A stretch of DNA of 64,000 nt, from NCBI GenBank assembly GCA_965372535.1, contig CBDVCR010000001.1, positions 11,290 through 75,289 on the forward strand, written 5' to 3'. This stretch comes from an uncultured bacterium (lineage in GTDB: Bacteria; Nitrospirota; Thermodesulfovibrionia; Thermodesulfovibrionales; JdFR-86). The notes beneath the pieces are model-generated. The model made no database searches. It was not told the origin of the DNA and saw nothing but the letters and a program-made list of their open reading frames with translations. Shown one piece after another: positions 2,596-45,345 of this stretch. Made by a program: the position numbers and the translations under genes. Numbering within the stretch: the stretch's first letter is position 1; each line of letters opens with the position of its first letter.

Positions 2596-2718
2596 TTTAC
2601 GAAACTCTCCTTAGGGGGCCGGCATGGGTTTAAATGTCTATTTTAGAACATTTGACCTGAAAACTTCACGCCGCGTCTTTTTGTTTCCATGTGGCAACGA
2701 AATTGCTAATTAATCTCC

Positions 2719-4080
2719 GTGCAACGGACGGGGAAGTCGGAAAACTTTACACAGGACACAGGCGATATGGAACTTGATATGGAACTTATAGAGAAGCTGA
2801 AAACGAGAAAAGCCCGGGTAGGGGTGATCGGACTGGGGTACGTGGGGCTTCCGCTGGTCATCCAGTTCTGCAAGGCGGGCTTCCGCGTGACCGGCTTTGA
2901 CATAGACCTTGAAAAGATTGCCATGCTTAAAGAGGGCAAGAGTTATATAAGGCATATCGAATCGTCTTTAATCGCCGGGTGCGGCCGGCTTTTTACCCCC
3001 ACTTCCGAGTATTCGGGGCTTTCCGGCATGGACTGCATAATCATCTGCGTGCCCACGCCGCTTAACAGATACCGGGAACCGGACATGTCGTTTGTCGTCG
3101 GCACTTCAAGGTCAGTCTCAAAGCACCTCCGGAGGGGCCAGCTCGTCGTCCTTGAGTCCACGACCTATCCCGGCACCACGGACGAGGACATGAGGGCGAT
3201 ACTTGAGGAGTCCGGCCTTCGGGCGGGGGCCGATTTCCATCTCGCCTACTCGCCCGAGCGCGAGGACCCGAACAATAAGGACTTCAATACCGGCAACATC
3301 CCGAAGGTCGTGGGCGGGTACACGGAAAATTGCCTCAAGGCGGCGGTGGCCCTCTACGGGCAGATTGTGGAGCGCACCGTCCCTGTTTCGTCCACTAAGG
3401 TCGCCGAGGCGGCGAAACTGCTCGAAAACATATACCGTGCGGTAAACATCGCCCTGGTAAACGAGCTGAAGGTCCTGTTTGCCAGGATGGACATCGACAT
3501 CTGCGAGGTAATAGACGCGGCCAGCACCAAGCCTTTTGGTTTTCAGGCGTTTTATCCCGGCCCGGGCCTCGGCGGGCACTGCATCCCCATCGACCCCTTC
3601 TACCTGACCTGGAAGGCGAGGGAGTACGATTTCCACACCAAGTTCATCGAACTCGCGGGCGAGATAAACGCCTCCATGCCCTACTACGTGGTCCACGAGA
3701 CCATGGAGGCCATTAATGGAAACGGAAGGAGCATTCGGGGCGCGAAAGTCCTCATCCTCGGCCTGGCGTACAAAAGAGGGGTGGACGACCCCCGCGAGTC
3801 GCCGTCGCTTAAGATTATCGAACTCCTGAAAGACCGCGGTGTCGAGGTCGACTACAACGACCCCTATATTCCGAGGCCCCCCAGGATGCGGAAATACGAC
3901 CTGGACATGGAGTCCGTGCCGTTGACCCCCGAAAACCTGAGAAAATACGACTGCGTTCTGGTGGTTACAGACCATCCCGAGTATGACCCTGATTTCATCG
4001 TCGAGCACTCAAACTTCGTCGTCGACACCAGGAACCTGATAAAGGACCGGAACGGAAACTCCAAAGTCAGGAGAGCCTGA
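2719..4080 (+). CDS. nucleotide-sugar 6-dehydrogenase (UDP-GlcNAc / UDP-ManNAc dehydrogenase, WbpA/WecC-like)
   Basis: N-terminal Rossmann motif VGVIGLGYVGLP and a catalytic-Cys region GLGGHCIP; the length fits the UDP-glucose/GDP-mannose dehydrogenase family. The true start may be the ATG at 2767. Confidence 0.85.
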   Translation: MQRTGKSENFTQDTGDMELDMELIEKLKTRKARVGVIGLGYVGLPLVIQFCKAGFRVTGFDIDLEKIAMLKEGKSYIRHIESSLIAGCGRLFTPTSEYSGLSGMDCIIICVPTPLNRYREPDMSFVVGTSRSVSKHLRRGQLVVLESTTYPGTTDEDMRAILEESGLRAGADFHLAYSPEREDPNNKDFNTGNIPKVVGGYTENCLKAAVALYGQIVERTVPVSSTKVAEAAKLLENIYRAVNIALVNELKVLFARMDIDICEVIDAASTKPFGFQAFYPGPGLGGHCIPIDPFYLTWKAREYDFHTKFIELAGEINASMPYYVVHETMEAINGNGRSIRGAKVLILGLAYKRGVDDPRESPSLKIIELLKDRGVEVDYNDPYIPRPPRMRKYDLDMESVPLTPENLRKYDCVLVVTDHPEYDPDFIVEHSNFVVDTRNLIKDRNGNSKVRRA

Positions 4081-4199: not shown

Positions 4200-5261
4200 T
4201 TAGAGGGCGCCTTTAGTGAATATGGTGATTTCGCTTGAGATATCAAGTATAAAATCCACCGTCTGGGTAAAGACCATCACGGTTTTGCCCGAGTCCATGT
4301 AGCCTTCCACAGTACCGAACCCTTCGATGGTTACGGTTCCTTCCGGGGTAATGGACAGGGCCCTGTCTATTTCCCCGCTTTCACCGCTGCTGTTTTCGTA
4401 CGAGATGCCGGCCGTGCCGTCCGGGGCAATCATGGCCGTGCCCTTTCCGGCAACCGGGGAATAGGCGCCTGTTGACAGGGTGCTCATCTTCCATGTGCCT
4501 TCAAGGTCGGCCGTGGAATAGACGGCAGCCTGTCTGGTCAATACGGCAAGTTCCATGGTATCGTTATGCCATTTGTCGGTCCAGACTATGACCGTTTTAT
4601 CAGAATCCATGCGGCCTTCCAGAGAGGGATACTCATCGATAGTGATAATTCCTTTTGCCGTGATATTCATTATCCCGCCGTAGCTCAGGTAGCCGGGGTC
4701 GCCGAAAATATCCGTGGTCGTTGCGGTGAATTCCCCTGATGCATTTACCGTAAGCGCGCCCCTTTCCCACCAGGGCGAGCTGGGGCCGGAGACCAGGATG
4801 TTTACGCCCCAGGCGCCTTCGAGGTCGGCGAGGGAGTAGGAATCAGCCTGCTTAAGCGCGGTAAACAGGCCGGTCGGGTCGTTGTTATATGCGGTTATTC
4901 CATGTATAACCGTATCGTTGGAATCACAGTGGCCCGAAAAAGTGCCGTCGCTCCCAATCGTAACCGTCCCGTCATCCGATATGGTTAACGTGTCCGTGGT
5001 GTTGTCGCTCGTCCCGCTGCTGTCAACGGTCAGGACGGATGCCGAACCGTTTGAGGATACCTCCATTGTGCCTCTTTTCCACCAGTTATCCTCGGAGCCC
5101 GAGGCAAGGAGGTTTGTCCCCCACGTGGCCTCAAGTCCGGGTGTTGGGTTTTTATCCCGGGGTGCGGAGCCGCTTTCCCCTCCACCTCCGCAGGCGGCCA
5201 GGGATGCCGCCAACATGCCGCTCAACAGCAAAGCCGTAATGTTTCTCAGGTGCTTTTCCAT
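4200..5261 (-). CDS. lipoprotein with a three-fold internal repeat, function unknown
   Basis: The ATG at 5261 follows a GGAGGAG RBS. The lipobox is LAASLAAC-GGGG. Three similar modules are present (..DLEG[AT]W..W[WK]RG.. and ..G.MDS.KTV.V.T..). Confidence 0.6.
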   Translation of the reverse strand: MEKHLRNITALLLSGMLAASLAACGGGGESGSAPRDKNPTPGLEATWGTNLLASGSEDNWWKRGTMEVSSNGSASVLTVDSSGTSDNTTDTLTISDDGTVTIGSDGTFSGHCDSNDTVIHGITAYNNDPTGLFTALKQADSYSLADLEGAWGVNILVSGPSSPWWERGALTVNASGEFTATTTDIFGDPGYLSYGGIMNITAKGIITIDEYPSLEGRMDSDKTVIVWTDKWHNDTMELAVLTRQAAVYSTADLEGTWKMSTLSTGAYSPVAGKGTAMIAPDGTAGISYENSSGESGEIDRALSITPEGTVTIEGFGTVEGYMDSGKTVMVFTQTVDFILDISSEITIFTKGAL

Positions 5262-5353
5262 CTCTCCTCCTTTTAAAAAGAAATTATTCCCCTTCATGTC
5301 ATCTTCCCGAGAACTCCCTGTCTTGATAACGGTTTTTTTCGCAACAACGTTTT

Positions 5354-5369
5354 TGCAACATCGGCGCCA
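5354..5369 (-). promoter_or_regulatory. sigma-54 (-24/-12) promoter for the lipoprotein gene
   Basis: The minus strand reads TGGCGC-cgatg-TTGCA, one mismatch from the TGGCAC-N5-TTGCA consensus. It lies about 90 nt upstream of the ATG at 5261. Confidence 0.6.
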
Positions 5370-5391
5370 TCGGCCCGGGGGGAGAAAAGAT

Positions 5392-5408
5392 TGTAAAGAA
5401 TGCCGACA
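5392..5408 (-). promoter_or_regulatory. candidate enhancer-binding-protein site (TGT-N11-ACA)
   Basis: The minus strand reads TGTCGGCATTCTTTACA, the same motif as 5535-5551 in the opposite orientation. Confidence 0.3.
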
Positions 5409-5534
5409 GGGGAGCGGGAAGGTCTTTCAGCTCTCCGTTGGCCGGTTTTTCGCCTGGCGGCCGCAAGGCCCTTTTTTTCCCGGGCAATCTCTCCCGGAGG
5501 AGCGCCCGCCGCGGGGAGAGGACTTGCAGCCTTG

Positions 5535-5551
5535 TGTCGGAGAAGTTTACG
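5535..5551 (+). promoter_or_regulatory. candidate enhancer-binding-protein site (TGT-N11-ACG)
   Basis: TGTCGGAGAAGTTTACG, about 50 bp upstream of the plus-strand sigma-54 promoter. Confidence 0.3.
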
Positions 5552-5600
5552 GCAGGGAGGATGCTTCAAAAAATGCCAATAAAAACGGCGCATTGGATGC

Positions 5601-5616
5601 TGGCATTGGTGTTGCT
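5601..5616 (+). promoter_or_regulatory. sigma-54 (-24/-12) promoter for the PEP-CTERM protein gene
   Basis: TGGCAT-tggtg-TTGCT, about 57 nt upstream of the ATG at 5673. Confidence 0.65.
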
Positions 5617-5672
5617 ATGTCTTGTGCGGAATTCAAATTTGATTGATTAACAACTCAAGAAAGGAGGCTGTC

Positions 5673-6347
5673 ATGAAAAAGGAAAGGTTCTTAATCGGTT
5701 TGCTGGTCATGGCGCTGATGCTTGGCCTGGGCGCGGCTGCATATGCGGTGCCCTCCCTCGGCGTCGGCACGGGTGATTTCAACTGCACGGGGGCAACGGA
5801 ATACTGGGATTGCTTCAGCGGCAATCTCGGGGGCCACGGTTTTGCGCTTCCGGCTTCCGGCGTGACAGACGGCATCACGCCGTTTACAAACATTGGTGGA
5901 GCCAACATCTGGCTCCTTGCGGAGCCGGGCATTGACCCTGTTTCGTTTGCCGCCGGAGGTACGACGTATCTTTTCGATACCGTGTTTTCGCCCGGCGTCG
6001 CTTTCGGTTCCTACCAAACGCCATATGAAGGGGCAAACCTCGGGGAGGTGGACGGCGACTGGTCCGCACTTCCCTCCCCCTTTAATCCCGCGACCTTCTA
6101 TGGCCTGCCCGGGACCCTTGATTACAGTGGAGACGCCGCTGGCAAGTGGGTCTTCCTGGTCGCCGATGATAACGGCATAGGCGGGTTGCAGGGCAATGGC
6201 ATGCCGGGCAAGCACGACTCCTTCTCCCCGAAGACCACCGGCGCGGTCGGCGTGCCCGAGCCCTCGACGCTTTCGATGGCGGTTGTCGGCGGGATTATCC
6301 TCATCGTCGGGATAATCGCAAGGAGGCGGGCGTACGGGGCGGCGTAA
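5673..6347 (+). CDS. PEP-CTERM sorting-domain secreted protein (exosortase substrate)
   Basis: The ATG follows an AAGGAGG RBS and there is a signal peptide. The C-terminus VPEPSTLSMAVVGGIILIVGIIARRR has the PEP motif, a transmembrane helix and a basic tail. Confidence 0.85.
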   Translation: MKKERFLIGLLVMALMLGLGAAAYAVPSLGVGTGDFNCTGATEYWDCFSGNLGGHGFALPASGVTDGITPFTNIGGANIWLLAEPGIDPVSFAAGGTTYLFDTVFSPGVAFGSYQTPYEGANLGEVDGDWSALPSPFNPATFYGLPGTLDYSGDAAGKWVFLVADDNGIGGLQGNGMPGKHDSFSPKTTGAVGVPEPSTLSMAVVGGIILIVGIIARRRAYGAA

Positions 6348-6469: not shown

Positions 6470-6594
6470 TTTGCCGCAGACGCAAGGCGCGCGGGGCGCG
6501 AAGGGGGACAGCGTCCCCCGGCTCTATCAATACCGCGAGTGGCCCGCAACGCCGCGGATGCGGTAATTCGCGGGGGTCCGTGACCCCCGGGCTC

Positions 6595-6622
6595 GCCCGA
6601 AGGGTGAGTGCTCCGGAAATTC
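6595..6622 (+). repeat. dispersed 28-nt repeat, copy 1
   Basis: gcccgaagggtgagtgctccggaaattc matches 11289-11316 at 25/28 positions. Confidence 0.6.
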
Positions 6623-6763
6623 CGTTAACTTTTTCAGGTGACAAAACGCATCTAAAACTAAAAATAGAATATTCCTATGGACATTTTGTATTTTCATGCC
6701 TTCTGTTCTATTTTTCATAATACTCATGAAATATCCGGGATAGGGGCGTGGGTGCGGCGCTCC

Positions 6764-8596: not shown

Positions 8597-8762
8597 AACG
8601 GCTCCCTCTTTCCCCGGTATTTGCGCCTCCGCGTCTATGTTGTAGCAAGAAAAGTACCACCTTTCGAAATTAAAAATATCCTTGACAACGGCGTTAGGGA
8701 GGTCTAAGACTGTAATTATTAGGAAGCAAGGCATCCGAGGATGCGCTTAGCAGGAGGAGAGC

Positions 8763-9773
8763 TTGGTGGTTGTGGAGCAAATACATTGCTTTCGTACTGA
8801 CCATACGCTTTGCATAAACGAGTGGGACGAAAACATGGCAGAGCTTACCGGGAAACGTTCCCCGGCGGTTATCGGGAAAAAGTACCACGAAGTCCTCCCC
8901 ATGATATTGGCCGGGGAAGCGGACGCGGTAGGCGCGGGGATAAAGGAGGGAAAGCCCCGGACGCTAAAGGATTATGCGTTTAACTGTCTCGGCGGCCAGA
9001 CGAAAGCCGATATAACGATCAGCCCTCTAAAGGACGGGGACGGAAAAGTCGCCGGCGCAAAAGTATGTATTTCACCAACCTCCACATGTTCGGTATTCAG
9101 GAAGCTCCAGGACTCGCAGCGTCTGATAGACATCGGTAAAATGGCCTCGACCCTCGCCCACGGGGTCAGGAACCCCCTTAACGCCATAAAGGGCGCTGTC
9201 GTCTACCTCGGGGAAAAGTATTCCGACGAGCCCACCCTTGTCGAGTTCACAAGCCTGATGGGAAGCGAGATATCAAGGCTCGATAATTTTATTTCGAGGT
9301 TCCTGAGCGCGTCCCTGTCGGATGCGGCGCCCTCCAGGGTGGACGTCAACTCCCTGCTCGAAAAGATAGAGGTCTTCACTTCCCTCCAGATGCAGGCCGG
9401 CAACGTGAAGCCCGTATTCGAATACGGTGATGTCCCCGAGGTGCCGATAAACACTTTCCAGTTCGAGCAGGCAATCCTGAACGTCATAAACAACTCGCTG
9501 GAGGCGATGCCCGGCGGCGGGCGGCTTGCCGTAAGGAGCCGGGCGGAAGACCGCTTTGGCTCCCGTGTTGCCGTAATCGAGATTTCCGATACCGGCAGGG
9601 GGATGTCCGACGCTGACATCACCCCGCCTCCGAAGGACAATGGAAGGGGTTTCGGGTTGTTTATCACCCGTGAAATCCTTCAGTATTACGGTGGCCGCCT
9701 CGAAATAGAGACCACCCGGGGCGAAGGCTCCACCGTAAGGCTGTGTCTTCCGGTAAATAACCCGGAGGTATGA
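8763..9773 (+). CDS. sensor histidine kinase (PAS-like N-terminus, HisKA, HATPase_c)
   Basis: H-box LAHGVRNPLNAIKG, N-box NVINNSLEAM, G1 DTGRGM and G2 GRGFGLFI. The TTG start is uncertain. Confidence 0.85.
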   Translation: MVVVEQIHCFRTDHTLCINEWDENMAELTGKRSPAVIGKKYHEVLPMILAGEADAVGAGIKEGKPRTLKDYAFNCLGGQTKADITISPLKDGDGKVAGAKVCISPTSTCSVFRKLQDSQRLIDIGKMASTLAHGVRNPLNAIKGAVVYLGEKYSDEPTLVEFTSLMGSEISRLDNFISRFLSASLSDAAPSRVDVNSLLEKIEVFTSLQMQAGNVKPVFEYGDVPEVPINTFQFEQAILNVINNSLEAMPGGGRLAVRSRAEDRFGSRVAVIEISDTGRGMSDADITPPPKDNGRGFGLFITREILQYYGGRLEIETTRGEGSTVRLCLPVNNPEV

Positions 9774-9774
9774 G

Positions 9775-11154
9775 ATGGACGCAAAAGGCAGGGTCTTAAT
9801 CGTGGACGACGAGCCCAATGCCCTCAAGGTGCTTTCCGCGGTGCTCTCTGCCGGCGGCTACAAAGTCCTTGAGTCCACGAACGTTGACGAGGCCTCGGAC
9901 TTGATGCGGAAAGAGGACGTGGACGCGGTAATAACGGACTTGAAGATGCCGGACAAGGACGGCAACCATCTTTTCGAGTACATCAAGGAGAACCATTCGG
10001 ACATCCCGGTCATCTTCCTGACGGCGTTCGGGACCGTTGAGTCCGCCGTGCATGCGATAAAGGGCGGGGCTTTTGACTTTTACATAAAACCTCCCGATTG
10101 CACAAGGCTAAAGGAGAACCTCGCGCGGGCGGTCGAACTTCGCCGGTTGAAAAAGGAACTCGGAGACCTGAAAAGCAACTTTCCGTCCGACAACGGGCTG
10201 CACGTTATCGGGCACACCAGGACAATGCGCAAGATGGTGGAGACGATTAAGTCGGTCAGGGATTCCGAAAGCAGCGTGCTTGTCTGCGGGGAGACGGGCA
10301 CGGGCAAGGAACTGGCCGCAAGGGAGCTCCATTACAGCGGCAAGAGAAAGGACGGGCCATTCATAGCCGTAAACTGCGCCGCCATACCGAGGGAACTGCT
10401 GGAGTCCGAGCTTTTCGGTTATGAAAGGGGAGCGTTCACGGGCGCCGTCTCAAGCAGGACGGGCAAGTTCGAGGAGGCATCCGGGGGGACGTTTTTCCTT
10501 GACGAGGTCGGTGAGCTTGAGCTTTCGCTTCAGGCGAAACTCCTGAGGGTGCTGGAGACAAAGGAGGTCGAGCGGCTCGGCAGCAACAGGAGGACAAAGG
10601 TCGATTTTAGGCTCGTCTGTTCTACCAACCGGAACCTCGAAGAAGAGGTAAGGGCCAGGAAATTCAGGGAGGACCTTTTTTACAGAATAAATGTAATAAA
10701 AATATCGACGGCTCCTCTGAGGGAGAGGGTCGCGGATATTCCACCGCTGGTCTCCGCCTTTGTCGGCGAGTACTGCTCCAGGGAGGGTAAGGTCCTCACG
10801 GTGTCGGAGCAGGTGATGGAAATATTCCGGAATTACCACTGGCCGGGCAATATCAGGCAGTTGAGAAACGTTGTGGAAAGGGCGGTCGTCCTCGCCAGGG
10901 GCAGTACGATTAGTCTCAGGGAACTGCCGGAGGAACTTTCGTCCGCGGCGAAGGAAGCGGCGCCCGATACTTTTTCCAGGACCCTGAGGGAGATGGAAAT
11001 ACAGGCCGTCAGGGACGCGCTCCGCAACTGTATCGGCAATAAGTCCAAGGCCGCCAGGATGCTCGGCATATCCCGTAAGGCTTTTTACAAAAGACTTTAC
11101 GATATGGGGGGCTTCAACGACAATCCCCCCCGCTCCAATAATAAAGCCTTCTGA
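9775..11154 (+). CDS. sigma-54-dependent response regulator (NtrC/AtoC family)
   Basis: A REC domain is followed by an AAA+ domain with Walker A GETGTGKE and the GAFTGA motif, then a C-terminal Fis-type HTH. Confidence 0.9.
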
Positions 11155-11486: not shown

Positions 11487-11873
11487 ATGGCGCTCTGGTC
11501 AAAGAAAAAGATACTTTTAATCGACGAGGCCTGCTTTTCCCGCATCTGCTCCGCCATCCTTGTGTCCGAGGGTTATCATATCGAGACGGCGTCGGGTGCC
11601 GGGAGCCTGTCGCCGCTTCTGAACTCCAACGAGCTGGGCTTGATAATTACGAGCTATCCCTACGGAGCGTTCCTTTTCGAGAAGCTCAAGGCCGGGGGGA
11701 TTCCGGCCATAATCCTGTCCGACCAGATAAACCTCGAACTCATCAACATACTTGAGGGGTTCAATCGTTCCTACTGTTTGATAAAGCCCCTTGACTACCG
11801 GAAGTTCAGGACCCTGGTAAAACGCGTCATGAGCGGCGACATGGGCATCAGCGGAGGGTATAACATTGTTTAG
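11487..11873 (+). CDS. receiver-like (pseudo-receiver) single-domain protein
   Basis: REC-like pattern: ILLIDEA, then LGLIITS where the phospho-acceptor Asp is expected, then IILSD and LIKP. Confidence 0.55.
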   Translation: MALWSKKKILLIDEACFSRICSAILVSEGYHIETASGAGSLSPLLNSNELGLIITSYPYGAFLFEKLKAGGIPAIILSDQINLELINILEGFNRSYCLIKPLDYRKFRTLVKRVMSGDMGISGGYNIV

Positions 11874-14619
11874 GACGGTCTCGGCGGCCCTGGCGGTATT
11901 TTTTATGATGGCGGGGTGTGCCGAGAATACGAAAGAGGAGATGTTCGGGGAGGGGCTTGAGCTTCTGGAAAGCGGCAACCCGAGGGGGGCCATCGTGCTT
12001 TTACGCAGAGCCCTCGACAGGGACCAGAACTTTGTGGAGGCCAGGTTTCAACTCGCGAAAGCGTATTTCGTGATAGGGTCTGTCGATTCCGCGGAAAAAG
12101 AGCTCCTCAAGGTCCAAAGGCAGCGCCCTTCCTCAAGGGACGTCCGTATCGAGCTGGCAAGGGTTTACCTTCGAAAGGCCAGGCCCGACGAGGCGCTTGA
12201 GGAAATTGGCGGCCTTGCGGAAGGTCCGTCGGACGATGCCGAGGCCCTTGAACTCGCGGCATTGGCCCACGCCGCGAAAGGCGATTATCCGTTTTCCATA
12301 AAATTGCTCAAGCGGGCGTTTTCCTTTGAGAGAGGACGGAAAACGGCCGCCATCTCGCTTGCCAGGGTTTACATGATGGCCGGGGAGGAAGGAAAGGCCG
12401 AGGCTAAGGTTAAGGAGCTGCTGAGAAGGTATCCCTCAAACAGGGACGCCCTCGGCCTGCTTGCGGCTCTCCGGAAAAGCAGAAAAGACATTGACGGGGC
12501 GCTTGAGAGCTACGAGCTGCTCTTAAAGACCAATCCCGCGGATTTCGAGGCCCTTTACGGGAAGGGCGCTCTTTATGCGGGTTCCGGCAGGTACACGGAA
12601 GCCCTCGCGGTATTGGACGAAATAATCGAAAAACATCCACGGCGGCCCGAAGGATACGTGCTGAAGGGAAGGGTCCTCTTTTATAAAAAGGACTTCGAGG
12701 AAGCCATGAACTTTCTTCAGCAATCGCTCTCGCTCCGCCCCGGCGCCGCGGCGTATTATTTTCTCGGCCTCTGCCATTACAACAAGAACGAACTCGAACA
12801 GGCGCTGAGCCGGTTTTACAGGGCGCTTGATTATAACCCGTCGCTGCTTGAGGCAAGGACGCTCGTGTCGTTTATTCTCCTCAGACAGGGCAGGACCGAG
12901 GACGCCATTTCCGAGGCCGTGAAGGTCACCGGTATGGACGGGGAGAACGTATTTGCCCATTACATACTCGGCAGCGCCTACCTGAAAAAGGGCCTGTATG
13001 AAGAAGGGATGCGGGAACTTGGCAGAGCCGTTGAGATAGCCCCCGGGCCTTCGGACGCCCATATAGAGAAGGGCCTCTATCAGTTCGGCAGGGGTGATTT
13101 GAAAGACGCGGGGGAGGAATTCGAGGCCGCCGTGAGCGCGGCCCCCGGGGAGCTGAACTCAAGGGTCGTCCTCGCCTCATACCATATGGAGAAAGAGGAG
13201 TTCCGGCGGGCAATAGAGGTCTTGAAGGGCGGTGTGAGGGGCCTCGAAACCGACGCGGTGCTTTTTAACCTTATCGCCGAGGCGTTTGGGAGGCAGAACA
13301 GGGTAGACGAGGCCATCCGGTATTTAAAGAAGGCGATAGGCTCAAACCCCGGCTACCTTGCCTCGTATTTCAACCTCTCCTCGCTGTATATGCTCAAGGG
13401 CGAGCACGAAAAGGCGGTGGTGGAGCTCGATGCCGCCGTGGAAAATTCTCCCGGAAACGTAAAGGCGCTGCTCGGAATCGCACGCATATACGAAACCGCC
13501 GGCGGAGACGGGAAGGCGCTCGGATATTATGTCATGGCCGAGGAGACGGGAAAGGCCGAGGGGAGCATGGCGCTGGCGGAATACTACCTGAGAAAAGGCA
13601 AACATGGCGAGGCCCTTGGCGTGCTCGGAAAGGGCATCGGTAAAAACCCTTCGGAATCCGCCCTTCACGAAATGGAGGGGAAAATACTCCTTTCGATGGA
13701 AAGGCCGCGTGAAGCCGTCCGGAGCTTTGAAAGAATCGAGAAGTTAAGCCCCGGCCGCGGGCTGCCTCTCATCGTCAATGCCTATGTGTTCATTGGGAAA
13801 CACCGGGAAGCCCTGAGGAAAGTCCGCGAGGCCCTGAAGCGTGAGCCGGAAAGTCCCGGCCTTGCGGCGGAGCTTTCGAGAATATTATTGATTATGGGCA
13901 GGGAAAACGATGCAGTTGAAAACGCCGGAAAAATGATACTCGCAAAACCCGGCTCGCCGGTCGGTTACATGACGCTTGCGAGGCTCTACCGAAACATGAA
14001 TAAGCCCGGACGGGCGATAGATGTGCTTATGGGGGCGAACGTCGCGGGAAGCGACAGGGCCGCAATATACGCGATGCTCGGGGATATGCACGCCTTTAGG
14101 AAGGATTACGCCTCGGCCCTCGACTATTACGGCAAGGCCGAGGGTGTAAACGGGGCGTATGTTCCGGCCGTATTCGGGCGGGGGGCGGCGCTTCATGCAA
14201 TGGGCAGGAAAGAAGAGGCCGCCGCAAGCTACAAGAAAGTGCTGAGGCTTTCGAGAAACCACGTGCCGGCGCTGAACAGCCTCGCCTATCTTTACGCCCA
14301 GGGCGACACGGACCTTGAAACCGCTCTCTTATTGGCCACAAGGGCGTATATGACCGCACCCCGCGACGGCCCGGTACTGGACACCTTCGGTTTCGTCCTG
14401 CTCAAGAGCGGGAGGGCGGGGGAAGCGGCGGATGTCCTCAAGAGGGCCGTCGAGATTATGCCGGAGGACCCCTCGGTCCGATACCACCTCTCGCTGGCCT
14501 ATAAGGAGCTGGGCGATAAACGCCGGGCGGTGGAGCACCTTGAGCGGGCGCTGAGGTCCGGGGATTTTACGGAGTCTGAACAGGCAAGGTCGTTGCTTGT
14601 CCAGTTAAAAGAGGGATGA
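11866..14619 (+). CDS. prsT: PEP-CTERM system TPR-repeat lipoprotein (PrsT-like)
   Basis: 917 aa with lipobox FFMMAGC and TPR repeats throughout. The size and position at the head of an exosortase EPS locus fit PrsT. Confidence 0.8.
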   Translation: MFRTVSAALAVFFMMAGCAENTKEEMFGEGLELLESGNPRGAIVLLRRALDRDQNFVEARFQLAKAYFVIGSVDSAEKELLKVQRQRPSSRDVRIELARVYLRKARPDEALEEIGGLAEGPSDDAEALELAALAHAAKGDYPFSIKLLKRAFSFERGRKTAAISLARVYMMAGEEGKAEAKVKELLRRYPSNRDALGLLAALRKSRKDIDGALESYELLLKTNPADFEALYGKGALYAGSGRYTEALAVLDEIIEKHPRRPEGYVLKGRVLFYKKDFEEAMNFLQQSLSLRPGAAAYYFLGLCHYNKNELEQALSRFYRALDYNPSLLEARTLVSFILLRQGRTEDAISEAVKVTGMDGENVFAHYILGSAYLKKGLYEEGMRELGRAVEIAPGPSDAHIEKGLYQFGRGDLKDAGEEFEAAVSAAPGELNSRVVLASYHMEKEEFRRAIEVLKGGVRGLETDAVLFNLIAEAFGRQNRVDEAIRYLKKAIGSNPGYLASYFNLSSLYMLKGEHEKAVVELDAAVENSPGNVKALLGIARIYETAGGDGKALGYYVMAEETGKAEGSMALAEYYLRKGKHGEALGVLGKGIGKNPSESALHEMEGKILLSMERPREAVRSFERIEKLSPGRGLPLIVNAYVFIGKHREALRKVREALKREPESPGLAAELSRILLIMGRENDAVENAGKMILAKPGSPVGYMTLARLYRNMNKPGRAIDVLMGANVAGSDRAAIYAMLGDMHAFRKDYASALDYYGKAEGVNGAYVPAVFGRGAALHAMGRKEEAAASYKKVLRLSRNHVPALNSLAYLYAQGDTDLETALLLATRAYMTAPRDGPVLDTFGFVLLKSGRAGEAADVLKRAVEIMPEDPSVRYHLSLAYKELGDKRRAVEHLERALRSGDFTESEQARSLLVQLKEG

Positions 14620-18871: not shown

Positions 18872-19378
18872 ATGGGCGAGTCATATTCATGGTTTGTGCT
18901 TTACGTCAAATCAAGGCATGAGTTCGTAACCCGGAACGAACTGGCCGGAAAAGGCATAGAGACCTTGCTTCCGTCCGCCAAACGCTACAGGTTATGGAGC
19001 GACAGGAGGAAGCTGGTGGAGTTCCCTCTCTTTCCGGGGTATCTTTTTGTCCATATCCATCCCGACCCGGAATCATACGTAAGCGTCCTCAAGGCCAGGG
19101 GCGCGGTGACGTTTGTCGCCCTCGAATCGAGCAATCCCACGCCAGTGCCGTCCGGGGAGATACGGTCGCTGAAAGCAGTCGTCGAAAGCGGCAAGGAGAT
19201 GGACATCTACCCGGAACTGAGGGAAGGCGCCAGGGTCAGGGTCAGGCGAGGACCTCTTGCCGGGGCCGATGGGGTCCTGGAGCGCAAGGGTGACGGAAAC
19301 CGGTTTCTGGTAAATATACAGATTCTCGGCAGAAGCATCGGCGTAAGGATTTATGACGACGACATCGAGGCGGCCTGA
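18872..19378 (+). CDS. NusG-family transcription antiterminator paralog (RfaH/UpxY-like)
   Basis: NGN domain (WFVLYVKSRHE...FPGYLFV) plus a KOW-like segment (GARVRVRRGPLAGADGVL). Confidence 0.8.
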   Translation: MGESYSWFVLYVKSRHEFVTRNELAGKGIETLLPSAKRYRLWSDRRKLVEFPLFPGYLFVHIHPDPESYVSVLKARGAVTFVALESSNPTPVPSGEIRSLKAVVESGKEMDIYPELREGARVRVRRGPLAGADGVLERKGDGNRFLVNIQILGRSIGVRIYDDDIEAA

Positions 19379-31257: not shown

Positions 31258-32568
31258 ATGAGATTACAAATGGATCCTAAACGGAAAGCGAATATCTCTT
31301 TTGCTCTTTGGGTGCCTTTTATCTGGTACGCGTTTGCTGTATCGCAAAGTCCCAGCCATTGGTTAAATCAATTTGGCGATAGTATAAGGGCGAGTTACCT
31401 GGGAGGTAACCCTGTCGAGAGAACTGTATATAGTATTTTTATAGCTATAGGAATATTAATACTTTTAAGAAGAAAAGTAGACTGGTCCCATCTGCTAAGA
31501 AATAATACATGGATTTTTGTATTGTTCCTTTATATGGCAATCAGTATACTCTGGTCCGATTTTAGAGGGGTATCCTTCAAAAGATGGATAAAAACAGCCG
31601 GTGCTCTTGTGATGGTTCTGATAGTCCTTTCAGAGTCCAAACCTTTCGAGGCAATGACAACACTGTTAAGGAGGTGCTTCTATCTTTACCTTCCGCTGTC
31701 GATCATATCTATCAAATATTTTCCAGCTATTGGTGTAACTAAAGATGGGCTGTCTGAAATGTGGAAAGGGTTGACATTACATAAAAACACTCTTGGTCAA
31801 GTGGTTATGGTCAGTGGGATCTACTTCCTATGGAATATTATGAGGGCCGGGAAAAGAAAAAAAATATACATTGACCTTTCTTATTTATTAATGGCACTGT
31901 GGTTGCTAACCGGCTCTCGTAGCGTTACATCAATATTCGGGTTTTTGTTCGGTGTCTGCATATTATTCATGCTTCACTTTATGAAATCAAATCCGAAATA
32001 CATGGGGAGGCACATTATAATAGGTATTTTTTTCATTGCTTTTTCCTTCTTGATTTTTGAACTTGCGGTAGAATCATTTGCCCAGGAAACATTACTAACA
32101 CTCGCTCTTGAGAGGTCAGGACGTGATATGACATTTACCGGAAGAATACGCCTTTGGAATGACATTATAGACATTGCATCCCTTCATTCAATATTGGGAA
32201 CCGGATATGGTAGTTTCTGGATCGGAGACCTGACACATGATTTATGGGAAAGACACCGCTGGAGGCCGGGACAGGGACATAATGGCTATATAGATGTCTA
32301 TGTTGAACTTGGTTTTGTAGGCGTATTTTTACTTATAGCTGTAATATTGTCTGCATATAGAAGTACAATGAGAAATTTTGCGGTTAATTTTGAATATGGG
32401 AGATTTCGCATGGTACTTCTCTCAATAATCTTATTGTGCAATATCACCGAATCAAACTTTCTAAACGGAACAAATAATTTGTGTTTTCTTTTTCTTCTTG
32501 CCGCAGTGAATATCTCAGATATTTCTCACTCTCATCATAAAAACATAGAAGATAAGCATAAGACTTAA
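31258..32568 (+). CDS. O-antigen ligase/polymerase-family polytopic membrane protein (Wzy-like)
   Basis: About 10-12 transmembrane helices with a large loop containing ..GHNGYIDVYVELG.. Confidence 0.7.
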   Translation: MRLQMDPKRKANISFALWVPFIWYAFAVSQSPSHWLNQFGDSIRASYLGGNPVERTVYSIFIAIGILILLRRKVDWSHLLRNNTWIFVLFLYMAISILWSDFRGVSFKRWIKTAGALVMVLIVLSESKPFEAMTTLLRRCFYLYLPLSIISIKYFPAIGVTKDGLSEMWKGLTLHKNTLGQVVMVSGIYFLWNIMRAGKRKKIYIDLSYLLMALWLLTGSRSVTSIFGFLFGVCILFMLHFMKSNPKYMGRHIIIGIFFIAFSFLIFELAVESFAQETLLTLALERSGRDMTFTGRIRLWNDIIDIASLHSILGTGYGSFWIGDLTHDLWERHRWRPGQGHNGYIDVYVELGFVGVFLLIAVILSAYRSTMRNFAVNFEYGRFRMVLLSIILLCNITESNFLNGTNNLCFLFLLAAVNISDISHSHHKNIEDKHKT

Positions 32569-34830: not shown

Positions 34831-35973
34831 ATGAAACACCTGACATTTCTTTTAGTGATAATATGCTTATTTATCGGAGGTGGGAAAACCTATGCAGGTG
34901 TTATCCAGGCTGCAAGTACATCCCGGGCAGACATCCAGGCGGCTATAAACTCTGCAAGTGACGGTGACATTGTAGTAGTTCCGGCAGGTATTTCTACATG
35001 GACCAGCAGGGTTACCATATCCGCTCAAATTACTCTACAGGGTGCGGGGCAGAGGAAAACTGTTATTACAAAGACGGGTGGGGATTACGCATTATATGCA
35101 AACGGAGTTGATAACTTGAGGATTACGGGATTCACGATAAGGGGTGGCAACTATTCGTCAAATGGCATCAATCTTGCTGGAAACCCAAAAGGCTTCCGCA
35201 TTGATAATAATAAGTTTACTCAATGTACCGGAAGCGCAGTTCAGATACGGGGCTATGCGAAGGGAGTAATTGACCACAACAATTTTATTGATAATCAAAA
35301 ATATGATGTTGTTATATATGGTGATAATGATGCGGGATGGCAGAGGCCGATAAATTTAGGAACAGACGAAGCTGTTTATGTCGAGGACAACTATTTTGAA
35401 CATACTAATACCCCAAGCAATGCACATTCCATAGCATCTAACCACGGTTCACGTTATGTCTTCAGGTACAATACAATTAATGACAACGGCAGTCTTAACA
35501 CGGTTCCAATCGACGCTCATGGAAATTGCTACTATGGGCGGGGAAGTGTTAGTTATGAGATTTATAATAACACTATAAATTCAGAGCATAGTTATAATGG
35601 AATGGGCATCAGGGGGGGGACAGGCGTCATATTTGGCAATACCTACATTGGCGACTTCACTAATCCGATTTATTTGACTAATTATCGGTCATGGAAAACT
35701 AATTGTTCTACGGGCGGTATAGTCTCTGCATACCCTGCTCCTGACCAAATTAATAACCTCTATATTTGGGGTAATATATACAATGAACAACCGCTAACAT
35801 CAGTTACCATAGCTTCAAGCGGTTACGCTTTTGACCATATTCAGGAAGATAGGGATTATTATTCTGAAAGACCTAGTTATACGCCATATGTATATCCACA
35901 TCCACTTACCGGTGGTGCTGATACTACTAGTCCATCTCCACCATCAAACCTGAGGATTGTGCAGTTGCAGTAG
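34831..35973 (+). CDS. secreted right-handed parallel beta-helix protein (pectate-lyase-fold; possible EPS lyase/modifier)
   Basis: Signal peptide and repeated ..I.GN.F.. beta-helix rungs. Confidence 0.6.
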   Translation: MKHLTFLLVIICLFIGGGKTYAGVIQAASTSRADIQAAINSASDGDIVVVPAGISTWTSRVTISAQITLQGAGQRKTVITKTGGDYALYANGVDNLRITGFTIRGGNYSSNGINLAGNPKGFRIDNNKFTQCTGSAVQIRGYAKGVIDHNNFIDNQKYDVVIYGDNDAGWQRPINLGTDEAVYVEDNYFEHTNTPSNAHSIASNHGSRYVFRYNTINDNGSLNTVPIDAHGNCYYGRGSVSYEIYNNTINSEHSYNGMGIRGGTGVIFGNTYIGDFTNPIYLTNYRSWKTNCSTGGIVSAYPAPDQINNLYIWGNIYNEQPLTSVTIASSGYAFDHIQEDRDYYSERPSYTPYVYPHPLTGGADTTSPSPPSNLRIVQLQ

Positions 35974-39773: not shown

Positions 39774-40694
39774 ATGAAAACCCTTAATGCTGAAGGAATT
39801 CATCTTGAGCCGCAGTCGCGAGTTACCCCAAGGAATATTTCCTTCCTGCTGTTTAATATTATTGCCCTTATGATGTTTTATCGACCAATTCACGAGTTGT
39901 TTTCAATGTCGTTGCATAATAATCTTTACTCTCACGTGGTTCTGGTGCCGCTTGTAAGCGGGTATCTGATTTATTCGAGAAGGAAGATTATATTTGAGGA
40001 CGTGAGGTATTCATTTCCAGCGGTCGCCGTTATTTTTGCCGGAATCTGTCTGTATCTTATTTGGAAAAAATCCCCTGGAAGCGTAAATCAAAACGACGCT
40101 TATTCACTCATTTCGCTTTCTTTTGTTATATTCTGGATAGGCGGATTCATATTCCTTTACGGGATTCGAGCATTCCGGCGTGCACTGTTTCCCCTTCTAT
40201 TTCTTTTCTTTATGGCGCCGATTCCTACCCTGATGGCGGATAAAATAATCTGGGTCCTGGAGAGCGGTTCAACGGAGGTCTCTTACTGGCTGTTCGAGCT
40301 TTCGGGGATTCCTTTTGCAAGAGAAGGGTTTGTGTTTCATCTCCCCGGGCTGAGCATCGAAGTGGCCGAGCAGTGCAGCGGCATCCGTTCGAGCCTTGTG
40401 CTTTTAATGTTCGGCATTTTACTGGGCAACCTCTTCTTGAAAAGCCGGTCCGGAAGATTACTCCTGATTTTAGCGGTTTTTCCCGTAACCGTGCTGAAAA
40501 ACGCCTTGCGGATTGTGATGCTTTCAGTCCTCGGGGCGTACGTCGATATAAGGATACTAGACGGCATCCTTCACCGGCGGGGGGGAGTGCCCTTTTTCGT
40601 CATAGCGCTTTCAATGCTGGTAATATTCCTTTGGGCTTTAAGGCTATCCGAAAAAAGCTTTAACGCCAGAGGTGAGACAAAATGTTTGAAATAA
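39774..40694 (+). CDS. exosortase (XrtA/EpsH-type)
   Basis: Polytopic membrane protein with the catalytic-Cys motif AEQCSGIRS. Conserved Arg (NALRIV) and His (GILHRRGG) are also present. It lies next to prsK and prsR. Confidence 0.85.
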   Translation: MKTLNAEGIHLEPQSRVTPRNISFLLFNIIALMMFYRPIHELFSMSLHNNLYSHVVLVPLVSGYLIYSRRKIIFEDVRYSFPAVAVIFAGICLYLIWKKSPGSVNQNDAYSLISLSFVIFWIGGFIFLYGIRAFRRALFPLLFLFFMAPIPTLMADKIIWVLESGSTEVSYWLFELSGIPFAREGFVFHLPGLSIEVAEQCSGIRSSLVLLMFGILLGNLFLKSRSGRLLLILAVFPVTVLKNALRIVMLSVLGAYVDIRILDGILHRRGGVPFFVIALSMLVIFLWALRLSEKSFNARGETKCLK

Positions 40695-42751
40695 CCCTGT
40701 CGGCCATATCCTCTTTTTTTCTCCTCGCCCTTTCCTTGTTCGTGATATTGAAGAAGAGGTCGGCCCCGAACGCGTCCCTTGGCGCCGTCCTGCTTTTACT
40801 TTTGGCAATCGAGCTTATGGACAGGTTTGCCCTTGTTCTTCCGGGAGAGCCCCTTGCGTTTAAAGGGGCCGCTCTTTTTTTCGAGTCGCTACTCCCTGCT
40901 GCTTTCCTGGCCTTCAGTCTCACCTATGCGCGGCAAAGGTCGGGGAACTTCCCCTCTTTTATCTGGGTTTTTCTCATGGCGTTGGCTGTCGCCTTCCCCT
41001 TGGGCGCGCTGTTTATTCCGCTCGATGATTTCTTCTATTCCCCCGACATCCGGTCGGAAAAAACGCTGTTTCTCGGTCAAGCCGGATATTGGTTTTATAC
41101 TGGGCTAATGGTCTACTGCGTCGCATCTTTAGTAAATATAGAGGCCACTTTCGCGGCCTCCTCGGGCGAGGACAGATGGAGGATGAAATTCGAAGTCGTG
41201 GGGATAAGCGCCGTTCTGGCGGTGCTTGTATTCTATTTCAGCCAGGGACTTCTGTACAGGACCATAAACATGGACCTTTTGCCGGCAAGGTCGGGGGTAA
41301 TGATACTGGCCTTCCTTCTTATAGGATATTCGAGGGCTTTCAGGGGCAATGACGTCCGGGTCGAAGTGTCAAGATACGTTGTCCATCGGTCGTTGGCGCT
41401 TCTCGTAATAGGGATATATTTTCTCGCTCTCGGGGTAATAGGCGAGGGCATGAGGTATTTGGATGTCTCTTTTGGACGCGACCTGACTATTTTCATCGCA
41501 TTTGCCGGCGCCGCCGCAGTGCTGCTCGTTCTTTTTTCCGAAAAGCTCAGGAGAAAGGCCAGGGTGATTATCAACAAGAATTTTTATGCCCAAAAGCATG
41601 ATTACAGAAACGAGTGGCTCAGGTTCACCGGCAGGCTCTCGTCCTGTAAGACGGCCGCTGACGTACAGGGCGTTATACTTGCCACATGCAGGGAGGCCCT
41701 GGACCTCAGGGGCGCTTCCCTGTACCTTGCGGCAGGAGAAAATAAATTTCTTCTCGGGGCGAACCAGGGGATGCCGGAAGAACCGCGAGAGTTTCGGGCT
41801 TCCGATGGAATGCTCGCGTATTTTATGGACCGGGGCAGGGCTTTCAGCCCCTTTGACGGAGAGTATGTCCCTGACGAAGAGGAAGCCTCTTTTGTCCGGC
41901 GCACCGGGGCGGCGTTGACAGTGCCCTTGATTGGCAACGATAAGGTCGAAGGCCTTCTGGTGTTCGGCGAACGGTTGAGCCGGGAGGAGTTTATCTATGA
42001 GGACTATGACCTCATGAAGACGCTTGCAAGGCAAGCTGCTCTTTCAATAAAGAAATTTTCGCTTTCGGAGGAGCTTGCCGAGGCAAGGGAGATGGCGGCG
42101 GTGGCGAGGATTTCCTCGTTCGTCATCCATGACCTTAAAAACCTCGCTTCCTCGCTTTCCGTGCTTTTAGACAATGCGCAGGATTACATGGATGAGCCGG
42201 ATTTTCAGAAAGACACGCTCAAGACCATCGGAAACACGGTTGCGAGGATGAAGAGCATAATGCAGAGGCTGAAGACCATACCGCAAAAGCATTCCCTGCG
42301 CCCGCAACCAGTGGACCTGGCCCTTCTCTCAAGAGAGGCGGTGGGTGAGGTCGCAAGGGTAAAACCGGGGGCGAAGTTGGTATGCCGGGGCACGAAGGCG
42401 GCGTCATCTGTTGATGTCGAGGAGATAAGAAAAGTCGTCATGAACCTGTTGCTCAATGCGGTTGAAGCGTGCAATGGAGACGGCGTCGTAAGGGTAGGCA
42501 CCGGCCGCAGCGACGGCATGGCATATGTCCGCGTGGAGGACAGCGGGTGCGGGATTGACGATGAGTTTATGAAAAACCATTTGTTCAAGCCCTTCAGGAC
42601 GACAAAGCAAAAAGGGCTTGGCATAGGGCTCTACCAGTGCAAACAGATAGCGGAGGCGCATGGCGGCAGACTGGAGGTGGAAAGCGAGGTCGGCAGGGGT
42701 TCTGTCTTTACGGTGTATCTGCCGGCCCCGGCCTCGAGGTGCACAGTGTAA
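40682..42751 (+). CDS. prsK: PEP-CTERM system histidine kinase (PrsK-like)
   Basis: 689 aa: a multi-transmembrane N-terminal half, a GAF-like region, H-box FVIHDLKN, NLLLNAVEA, DSGCGI and GLGIGLYQ. Confidence 0.85.
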   Translation: MFEITLSAISSFFLLALSLFVILKKRSAPNASLGAVLLLLLAIELMDRFALVLPGEPLAFKGAALFFESLLPAAFLAFSLTYARQRSGNFPSFIWVFLMALAVAFPLGALFIPLDDFFYSPDIRSEKTLFLGQAGYWFYTGLMVYCVASLVNIEATFAASSGEDRWRMKFEVVGISAVLAVLVFYFSQGLLYRTINMDLLPARSGVMILAFLLIGYSRAFRGNDVRVEVSRYVVHRSLALLVIGIYFLALGVIGEGMRYLDVSFGRDLTIFIAFAGAAAVLLVLFSEKLRRKARVIINKNFYAQKHDYRNEWLRFTGRLSSCKTAADVQGVILATCREALDLRGASLYLAAGENKFLLGANQGMPEEPREFRASDGMLAYFMDRGRAFSPFDGEYVPDEEEASFVRRTGAALTVPLIGNDKVEGLLVFGERLSREEFIYEDYDLMKTLARQAALSIKKFSLSEELAEAREMAAVARISSFVIHDLKNLASSLSVLLDNAQDYMDEPDFQKDTLKTIGNTVARMKSIMQRLKTIPQKHSLRPQPVDLALLSREAVGEVARVKPGAKLVCRGTKAASSVDVEEIRKVVMNLLLNAVEACNGDGVVRVGTGRSDGMAYVRVEDSGCGIDDEFMKNHLFKPFRTTKQKGLGIGLYQCKQIAEAHGGRLEVESEVGRGSVFTVYLPAPASRCTV

Positions 42752-44282: not shown

Positions 44283-45017
44283 ATCCCTTTGCATGAAGTC
44301 CGGGCTCAGGCGTATGTGCCGGTTTTTCAGGACGGTGATTTCCTTGTCTCTCTGGAGCTTGTCGATTACCCTTGTCGCGGTCTCTCTCGTAAGGCCCGCC
44401 ATGTTCGCTATGTCCCTGTGGGTGAGCTTGAGGTCCAGCGTGACGCCCTCTCCCGTTTCCTTGCCGTACTCCTCAGCGAGCAGGCAAAACAGCATCTTCA
44501 ACCTCTGGGACGCGTTTTTGAAGTTCAGTATCTGTATCATGTCCCAGGAGTTGCGGAGACGGGCGCACAGTATCTGAAGCAGCCGATCGAGTATCTTGCT
44601 CTGGGAATGTATCAGGGAATAAAAATCGTTTTTGGAAATGACGGCGGTCAGGGTGTCTTCTATCGCAAGCACGGTGGCGGGGACCGTTTTGCCGTCAATC
44701 AAGGACATCTCGCCGAAGAATTCCCCTGTCCGGTGTATGGCCAGGATGGTCTCCTTCCCGTCCTCGCTTATCTGGATAACTTTCACCTTCCCGGACAGGA
44801 TAATATACATGTATTCGTTGGTGTCTTCCTCATAAAGTATCGTCTTGTTCTTACTGTACTGTTTAATCTTCAGTTTCGCGCTGATATGGAGCAGGTCCTG
44901 ATCCGTAAGCGAAGCGAAAATCTGTACTGGTTTCAGTCTGTCTATAACGTTTTTTTCTTCCACGTCTGTCCCTCTGGCAAGTCGGTTTTTACACGGTTTC
45001 CCATGTATTTTTTGCAA
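44265..45017 (-). CDS. Crp/Fnr-family transcription regulator
   Basis: cNMP-binding domain (FGEMSLIDG) plus a C-terminal HTH (RDIANMAGLTRETATRVIDKL). The start could be an internal GTG. Confidence 0.9.
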   Translation of the reverse strand: MQKIHGKPCKNRLARGTDVEEKNVIDRLKPVQIFASLTDQDLLHISAKLKIKQYSKNKTILYEEDTNEYMYIILSGKVKVIQISEDGKETILAIHRTGEFFGEMSLIDGKTVPATVLAIEDTLTAVISKNDFYSLIHSQSKILDRLLQILCARLRNSWDMIQILNFKNASQRLKMLFCLLAEEYGKETGEGVTLDLKLTHRDIANMAGLTRETATRVIDKLQRDKEITVLKNRHIRLSPDFMQRDLREGM

Positions 45018-45220
45018 GACCCGTGCCCAACGGCGAATTACCTTTAATCAGCCTGTTATACATGTTTTACGGGCCGTGGCATGTAAAGTAATTCGACACC
45101 TGTCGTTTAACGTTACACTCTCAATTAATCGAGTATTTCCCGCATCGCCCGTCTTTTGAGGCATCGTCCCTTCCCGGCTTTTCTCCGTTCGGCATCGCAT
45201 TCAGTCAATTCCCTGTAACT

Positions 45221-45345
45221 AAAAGAGCCGCCGGAGAAATCCTCTCTGGCGGCCCGGCGGACATAGGATAGCGTTTGCTGACATCCTTTAGTCCCGTCGC
45301 TCTGCGTCCCCGGGTTTCCCCAGGTTTGCTCTGAGCAGAGAACCT
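45221..45345 (-). promoter_or_regulatory. GEMM-I (cyclic-dinucleotide) riboswitch-like leader with intrinsic terminator, upstream of the crp-like gene
   Basis: The RNA reads ..CAGAGCAAACC-UGGG-GAAA-CCCG-GGGACGCAGAGC..GGAC-UAAA-GGAU..AUCC-UAU-GUCC.., then GCCGCCAGAGA..UCUCCGGCGGC-UCUUUU. This matches the Vc2 core GGCAAACC..GAAA..GGGACGCAAAGC. Confidence 0.75.

Follow-up and report, generated by a model that had tools for sequence, protein, structure and literature searches.

Two PEP-CTERM-box/sigma-54 promoter units, probably PrsR-controlled, back to back between a lipoprotein gene and a PEP-CTERM protein gene

Proteobacterial PEP-CTERM genes were described by Haft et al. in 2006 (PMC1569441) as mostly single-gene operons with long upstream regions, in which two 17-nt motifs recur. 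Motif 1 has the 3' end TTTACA and is repeated at times; motif 2 fits the -24/-12 promoter of sigma-54 and follows motif 1 after 62.8 +/- 10.6 nt (range 32-92) (PMC1569441). Of 167 proteobacterial PEP-CTERM genes, 99 are preceded by this pair, which is occasionally found at other genes as well. The phylogenetic profile of the motif led the same authors to PrsK, PrsR, and PrsT, and phylogenetic profiling assigned motif 1 to PrsR (PMC1569441). The NCBI name of the PrsR family, TIGR02915, is “PEP-CTERM-box response regulator.” Here, we describe a divergent form of this arrangement in a 64,000-nt stretch of contig CBDVCR010000001.1 from an uncultured bacterium (hereafter “the window”), where the intergenic region 5262-5672 separates a lipoprotein gene from a PEP-CTERM protein gene.

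Among other sigma-54 activators, the upstream activating sequence (UAS) of NifA is TGT-N10-ACA, and the TGT...ACA half-sites are bound by a dimer of the activator's Fis-type helix-turn-helix (HTH). Sites of the NifA/NtrC family lie about 60-150 bp upstream of the -24/-12 promoter, and the intervening DNA often holds a bend or IHF site. Among the nif genes, there are known cases of divergent promoters that flank activator sites. For PEP-CTERM genes themselves, transcription in Zoogloea resiniphila requires RpoN and PrsK/PrsR, as summarised in PMC9012009. The pepA gene of Aquincola tertiaricarbonis is RpoN1-dependent, with a transcription start that maps to a -24/-12 promoter and a predicted enhancer upstream (PMC9850573).

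The region 5262-5672 very probably holds two canonical PEP-CTERM-box/sigma-54 units set back to back and controlled by PrsR, of which one would drive the PEP-CTERM protein gene and the other its partner lipoprotein gene. A sequence-only reading of the window had proposed two outward-facing sigma-54 promoters between these genes, had listed PrsR and an NtrC-like protein as sigma-54 activators, and had suggested that the promoter pair responds to PrsR and contains a candidate recognition sequence for it. All four promoter and box elements proved exact in string and position, with the two promoters facing outward (Table 1). The two activators are also as described, one of them scoring as PrsR and the other being NtrC/AtoC-like and under the PrsR cut-off. 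The flanking genes are likewise those described; the Pfam PEP-CTERM score is, however, sub-threshold. The proposed PrsR response is supported by the fit of the motif, its enrichment in 80 related loci, the conserved architecture, and the DNA-binding helix of PrsR, each of which is taken up below. Haft et al. published this box-plus-promoter architecture in 2006 and the NCBI family name matches it, so the architecture is not new: the locus adds a new and somewhat unusual case to a switch already known, and the element itself was already in the literature.

In length, 3' end (TTTACA), orientation, and distance to the sigma-54 site, the window 17-mer TGTCGG-N5-TTTAC(A/G) agrees with motif 1. The lipoprotein-side box is an exact fit (22.7 bits with an independent position weight matrix, PWM), and the PEP-side box, which ends in TTTACG, has one mismatch (14.5 bits). 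On the PEP side, 48 nt separate box and sigma-54 site, which is inside the published range, and the box is centered at about -84; on the lipoprotein side the spacer is 21 nt and the box center about -57. Transcription is predicted to start near 5343 for the lipoprotein gene (leader about 82 nt) and near 5627 for the PEP-CTERM gene (leader about 46 nt). The A/T tract between the PEP-side box and its promoter may assist bending, either as a bend itself or as an IHF-type site. No sigma-70-like promoter or terminator was found in 5150-5750, and an Rfam scan at the gathering threshold found no RNA family in the intergenic region. As a separate observation, the predicted lipoprotein leader holds a partly conserved block, GAGTTCTCGGGAAGATGACA, at about 5280-5320(-), with the counterpart GATTTCATG-GAATGAT-TCA in two homologous loci that are introduced below (L003, about 495-515; L004, about 420-440).

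Both kinds of element are present in excess. The window contains eight occurrences of the sigma-54 consensus with at most one mismatch where 1.61 are expected, and six of TGTCG-N6-TTTACA, again with at most one mismatch, where 0.76 are expected; none of 100 shuffles reached either count. All six box matches are non-coding and adjoin sigma-54-like sites. Similarly, a PWM trained solely on 25 sites from foreign genomes, used at a threshold of 14 bits, finds six sites in the window (the two boxes of the divergent region and four more) against 0.1 expected. The distance from the TGT to the ACA half-site is 11 nt in every window box and in all 25 training sites.

We then turned to 80 prsR loci of other species (48-70% PrsR identity, about 655 kb), counting cases in which a box precedes a sigma-54 site on the same strand at a distance of 10-120 nt. 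There were 28 such pairs, with a modal spacer of 60-61 nt, against 0.35 in shuffles, and a control with the box downstream gave one. Enrichment upstream of other PEP-CTERM genes, which the sequence-only reading had put forward as its test, is found in these loci. At 14 PWM bits or more, 25 boxes are in the forward orientation, and the median of their spacers is 61 nt; with this median from 25 independent sites, our definition of the spacer is comparable with that of Haft et al. Among the 24 units whose downstream open reading frame (ORF) could be recognised, 14 have a PEP-CTERM tail at the end of that ORF, or 15 if an AEP variant is counted, and these include metagenome-assembled genomes (MAGs) labeled Nitrospirae. 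A further 15 boxes are flipped and lie 69-72 nt from their sigma-54 sites, one helical turn past the forward mode; 14 of the 15 stand before orthologs of the GAF-HisKA-HD-GYP gene of the window. The two boxes of the window had been read as mirrored, each towards its own promoter; that orientation is present here and is the common one, but the conserved class of flipped boxes means that it is not obligatory.

Homologous loci tell us which parts of the intergenic region are kept. In the near-identical L001, the lipoprotein is 98% identical at the protein level and the intergenic DNA 96% identical. Neither box and no position of the PEP-side promoter is substituted, the lipoprotein-side box is identical, and the single promoter change (lipoprotein-side TGGCGC to TGGCAC) gives a better match to the consensus. 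The few differences, a 2-bp indel included, are located in the 126-bp segment between the boxes. L003 and L004, whose lipoproteins are 46-48% identical to that of the window, have the same divergent lipoprotein/PEP-CTERM pair, with an 11/11 sigma-54 site and one box per side. In the alignment with these two loci, conservation is essentially limited to the promoters, the PEP-side box, and the A/T tract, where the block GTTTTTATT is shared by all three; the lipoprotein promoter core GATGGC(A/G)CCGATGTTGC is kept in L001, L003, and L004. The GC-rich segment between the boxes is absent from L003 and L004. In L002 and on the P0004 contigs, the lipoprotein and PEP-CTERM genes stand in tandem, and the PEP-CTERM ortholog of L002 has a box and a sigma-54 site separated by 48 nt, just as in the window.

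It could be argued that the matches arose by chance or are relics and that the genes are transcribed from a different, unrecognised type of promoter, and agreement with a consensus is indeed no proof of function by itself. The shuffles that never reach the observed counts, the 11/11 sigma-54 sites that recur at corresponding positions in loci sharing about 50% protein identity, and the lack of a sigma-70-like site in 5150-5750 make this explanation extremely improbable.

Two side observations concern L002. Just past its lipoprotein stop, and about 260 nt upstream of its PEP-CTERM sigma-54 promoter, there is another, very strong box (1099-1115, 23.3 bits). In addition, the called start of the L002 PEP-CTERM gene (1235) is probably wrong, as a TTG at 1442 after the ribosome-binding site GAAGGAGG fits better.

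Spacing is where the two sides of the region part company. On the PEP side it is stable (48 nt in the window, 48 in L002, 50 in L003, and 40 in L004), whereas on the lipoprotein side it varies between loci (21, 39, and 92 nt). A box centered at about -57 with a 21-nt spacer is very near for looping, and therefore the distal box (at about -200) or a shared PrsR oligomer may activate the lipoprotein promoter. Taken to its conclusion, this would make the two boxes one shared bidirectional enhancer, with the lipoprotein promoter activated mainly from the distal box or by a single two-box PrsR hexamer. We regard such an arrangement as possible but doubtful. In its favor are a proximal box that would be too near to loop, a spacer outside both the published and the 80-locus ranges, and the contrast between a variable and a conserved side. 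The boxes of L003 and L004, only 37 and 28 bp apart, resemble the inward-facing pairs found at the promoters of a Crp-like gene and a GAF-kinase gene elsewhere in the window. Enhancer-binding proteins are, moreover, generally indifferent to position and orientation, and the HD-GYP gene described below has flipped boxes. Set against this, 52 of 58 strong boxes in the related loci have no second site within 60 nt, each window promoter has its own correctly oriented box, and the 126 bp between the window boxes is far for joint nucleation of a hexamer. A related idea, that an inward-facing pair was split here by an insertion, was also considered: such pairs exist (at the Crp-like and GAF-kinase promoters, and 3-5 elsewhere), but because 52 of the 58 strong boxes are single we reduced it to a minor part of the shared-enhancer alternative. 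Two standard units set back to back remain the preferred description of the region.

The 126-bp segment itself was examined in two other ways. A coding role was rejected because the 2-bp indel relative to L001 disrupts every ORF that spans the segment; a gene of 68 aa was called at this place in L001 but is likely spurious. Likewise rejected was an origin as a repeat or mobile element, there being no second copy in the window. A metagenome scan with the lipoprotein promoter core GATGGCACCGATGTTGC returned at least 120 stretches, which we take as chance matches because, among the matches listed, none encodes a lipoprotein or PEP-CTERM homolog.

Which protein binds the boxes? Besides PrsR, the window encodes the NtrC/AtoC-like regulator with its kinase (9775-11154 and 8763-9773), and it could be this regulator, not PrsR, that occupies them. 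Its gene is the nearer one, about 4 kb off, its domain architecture is the same as that of PrsR, and half-sites of the TGT/ACA type, as in the boxes, are widespread among NtrC-family activators. The DNA-binding domains, however, point to PrsR. The PrsR HTH, GVSRPTLYDLMKKHG, is near-invariant across the 80 prsR loci, the window copy being identical to the predominant form, and its recognition helix, SRPTLYDLMKKHG, is identical in the window and near-invariant in the loci; this near-invariance of the helix corresponds to that of the box. The recognition helix of the NtrC-like protein departs from it, and the protein scores under the PrsR family cut-off (371 versus 502.6). The same box adjoins prsR across the 80-locus set and precedes PEP-CTERM genes, and the phylogenetic profile of Haft et al. 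points to PrsR specifically (PMC1569441). Finally, the NtrC-like pair is divergent from glmS, whose conserved sigma-54-like promoter has no box. Taken together, these observations make binding by the NtrC-like regulator very unlikely, and PrsR the probable occupant of both boxes.

The glmS promoter deserves a note of its own. It lies at 8644-8659(-) in the window, where glmS is divergent from the kinase/activator pair (8763-11154), at 1869-1884 in L003, and at 1778-1793 in L004; the three sequences are TGGTACTTTTCTTGCT, GGGTATAACTCTTGCT, and GGGTATGACTTTTGCT. Upstream there is a palindrome, CTGTATCC-N3-GGA(T/C)ACAG in L003 and L004 and GCATCC-N2-GGATGC in the window. The NtrC-like two-component system may exert direct sigma-54 control of glmS.

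For the divergent region, we propose the following sequence of events. The membrane kinase PrsK would phosphorylate PrsR, dimers of which would recognize the pseudo-palindromic TGTCGG-N5-TTTACA (core TGT-N11-ACA) through their Fis-type HTH. Bound PrsR would then assemble into an ATPase ring; a bend in the A/T-rich spacer DNA would bring this ring to the closed sigma-54 holoenzyme at -24/-12, which it would remodel into the open complex. Both genes would in this way be switched on together with the exosortase and exopolysaccharide (EPS) programme.

It is important to weigh what speaks against control of these two genes by PrsR. The PEP-side box has a terminal G where A is otherwise invariant, and the 21-nt spacer on the lipoprotein side is shorter than the published minimum of 32 nt and than all credible cases in the 80 loci (at least 45 nt). 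The tail of the presumed PEP-CTERM protein is under the Pfam threshold (PF07589, 17.4 bits; gathering score 20.7), and the lipoprotein is not itself a PEP-CTERM protein. The identity of our box with the motif 1 of Haft et al. rests on length, 3' hexamer, spacing, and context rather than on the logo, and the enrichment in this genome was assessed within 64 kb only. In the literature that we searched, we found no electrophoretic mobility shift assay, footprint, or other direct evidence of PrsR binding to DNA.

Table 1. Positions of the features discussed, numbered from the first letter of the window
Feature	Position	Strand	Details
Lipoprotein gene	4200-5261	-	353 aa; start MEKHLRN; GGAGGAG ribosome-binding site; signal peptide; lipobox LAAC; three all-beta repeats
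Lipoprotein-gene sigma-54 -24/-12 promoter	5354-5369	-	TGGCGCCGATGTTGCA; 10/11 match to TGGCAC-N5-TTGCW; GG-N10-GC
Lipoprotein-side PEP-CTERM box	5392-5408	-	TGTCGGCATTCTTTACA; TTTACA end towards lipoprotein promoter
Inter-box segment, 126 bp	5409-5534		GC-rich (67%); lineage-specific
PEP-side PEP-CTERM box	5535-5551	+	TGTCGGAGAAGTTTACG; points at PEP-CTERM gene promoter
A/T tract between PEP-side box and -24 element	5579-5587	+	AATAAAAAC
PEP-CTERM-gene sigma-54 -24/-12 promoter	5601-5616	+	TGGCATTGGTGTTGCT; 10/11 match to TGGCAC-N5-TTGCW; GG-N10-GC
PEP-CTERM protein gene	5673-6347	+	224 aa; C-terminus VPEPSTLSMAVVGGIILIVGIIARRR (VPEP-TM-RRR)
prsK, sensor kinase	40682-42751	+	TIGR02916, 532 bits (cut-off 300)
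prsR, sigma-54 activator	~42819-44282	+	TIGR02915, 646 bits (cut-off 502.6)
prsT, TPR lipoprotein	11866-14619	+	TIGR02917, 544 bits (cut-off 312)
Exosortase gene	39774-40694		above curated cut-off
XrtA-type EPS genes	14.6-25.7 kb		export protein, chain-length determinant, tyrosine kinase, ATPase, outer-membrane protein, sugar transferase
NtrC/AtoC-like response regulator	9775-11154		TIGR02915, 371 bits (cut-off 502.6); kinase gene at 8763-9773
Crp-like unit, promoter	45013-45028	-	GGGCACGGGTCTTGCA; before Crp/Fnr-family regulator gene 44265-44963
Crp-like unit, box	45082-45098	-	24.7 bits; inward-facing pair with the next
Crp-like unit, box	45101-45117	+	14.4 bits
GAF-HisKA-HD-GYP unit, promoter	51366-51381	-	AGGCATAATTATTGCT; before gene 49039-51318, few kb from prsR
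GAF-HisKA-HD-GYP unit, flipped box	51492-51508		15.4 bits
GAF-HisKA-HD-GYP unit, forward box	51470-51486		weak copy
Atypical unit, sigma-54-like site	2692-2707	+	TGGCAACGAAATTGCT
Atypical unit, box	2735-2751		21.1 bits
c-di-GMP-I riboswitch	48789-48887	-	RF01051
c-di-GMP-I riboswitch	45245-45340	-	RF01051
c-di-GMP-I riboswitch	58788-58871	+	RF01051
c-di-GMP-I riboswitch	63633-63708	+	RF01051

The gene at 5673-6347 is the sole ORF of the window with a PEP-CTERM tail. The PF07589 alignment to its product is full-length (residues 194-219 of 224), an NCBIfam search of the product gave no match at E <= 0.001, and the L002 ortholog, with which the product shares 58.6% identity, bears a canonical PEP-CTERM tail. 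The lipoprotein belongs to a rare family with 10 detectable homologs, none of its relatives being found in a scan of genome contigs, and wherever its surroundings could be examined, it adjoins a PEP-CTERM gene. It is a conserved genomic partner of one PEP-CTERM protein family. The AlphaFold2 model is confidently all-beta (pLDDT 84, pTM 0.84), and each of the three repeats opens with a motif of the type DLEG(A/T)W...W(W)ERG. The best PDB matches of the model are surface-lipoprotein barrels of the TbpB type; because these matches are weak (TM only about 0.3), we did not assign a function to the lipoprotein from this resemblance.

The surroundings are those of a complete XrtA-type PEP-CTERM/EPS locus, with prsK, prsR, prsT, the exosortase gene, and the EPS cluster all inside the window. 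The closest relatives of its PrsR are from MAGs labeled Nitrospirae or Nitrospirota (67-70% identity), followed by Geobacteraceae (62-65%). A gene for an UpxY/RfaH-like transcription antiterminator, 18872-19378(+), lies within the XrtA-type EPS cluster. Two further sigma-54 matches, a perfect 11/11 consensus at 31892-31907(+) (TGGCACTGTGGTTGCT) and a 10/11 site at 35163-35178(+) (TGGCATCAATCTTGCT), fall inside EPS-cluster ORFs that have no NCBIfam family match, with no box near, and may be intragenic sigma-54 sites or internal promoters.

The four additional boxed sites of the window belong to other units. One precedes the Crp/Fnr-family gene, which is convergent with prsR and has a probable GTG start at 44963; its arrangement of boxes and sigma-54 site was seen in none of the other prsR loci examined. 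A second precedes the GAF-HisKA-HD-GYP gene, orthologs of which in 14 prsR loci of Geobacteraceae and Nitrospirota (L007, L008, L009, L011, L013, L015, L020, L021, L023, L026, L029, L037, L060, and L081) have a flipped box 69-72 nt from the sigma-54 site, against 109 nt in the window. This signaling gene, whose product is a putative phosphodiesterase of cyclic di-GMP (c-di-GMP), is a probable conserved regulon member that is not a PEP-CTERM gene, and it is a possible link to the turnover of c-di-GMP. The third unit is atypical: its box lies downstream of a sigma-54-like site, at about +25 and 15 nt before the ATG (2767) of a nucleotide-sugar dehydrogenase gene. In L001 (about 6480-6700), the box and the sigma-54-like site are both preserved, although 14 bp have been inserted between them and 7 bp deleted past the box. 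A box at about +25 could serve repression, downstream activation, or something else.

In addition, the window holds four c-di-GMP-I riboswitches (Rfam RF01051, 51-64 bits; gathering score 35). They are located, one each, before the gene of a 643-aa CFI-box-CTERM/PKD/fn3 protein, before that of a 1003-aa transglutaminase-like protein, upstream of the Crp-like gene and directly ahead of its boxes and sigma-54 promoter, and at the window end. Genes for large surface or repeat proteins immediately follow at least two of them. From these units and riboswitches one might suppose, tentatively, a PrsR/PEP-CTERM-box regulon that in this lineage is wider than the sorting substrates and wired into c-di-GMP signaling, with PrsR acting from unconventional positions (-57 and about +25); we think this less likely than the narrower regulon.

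The outcome is mainly confirmatory: the architecture of 2006, recognised here from sequence alone, holds in an uncultured lineage whose PrsR has its nearest relatives in Nitrospirota-labeled MAGs. With two promoters, two boxes, and spacings of 21 and 48 nt, the locus is a compact natural test bed for PrsR. The lipoprotein partner and the HD-GYP gene hint at how exosortase substrates, EPS, and c-di-GMP might be coordinated in biofilm or floc formation.

How, then, does the locus compare with the systems described at the outset? Unlike the NifA UAS, the box has an N11 rather than an N10 spacing and is markedly asymmetric (TGTCGG versus TGTAAA), with an A/T-rich center; PrsR, for its part, carries a receiver domain where a NifA-type activator has a GAF domain. 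The pepA promoters of Zoogloea and Aquincola (PMC9012009, PMC9850573) likewise serve PEP-CTERM genes, which depend on RpoN in both and in Aquincola have a start at a -24/-12 promoter; those cases are from Betaproteobacteria, have experimental support, and come with no description of a divergent partner gene, whereas the present locus is argued from its sequence. The closest likeness is to the arrangement of Haft et al. (2006): a box on the same strand, tens of nucleotides upstream of a sigma-54 element, both within the large non-coding region that precedes a PEP-CTERM gene forming an operon by itself, and PrsK, PrsR, and PrsT encoded by the same genome. Unlike that arrangement, the window has two units back to back, one of them serving a lipoprotein gene with a 21-nt spacer, and while the 2006 motif was described in Proteobacteria only, the nearest relatives of the window's PrsR are from MAGs labeled Nitrospirae or Nitrospirota.

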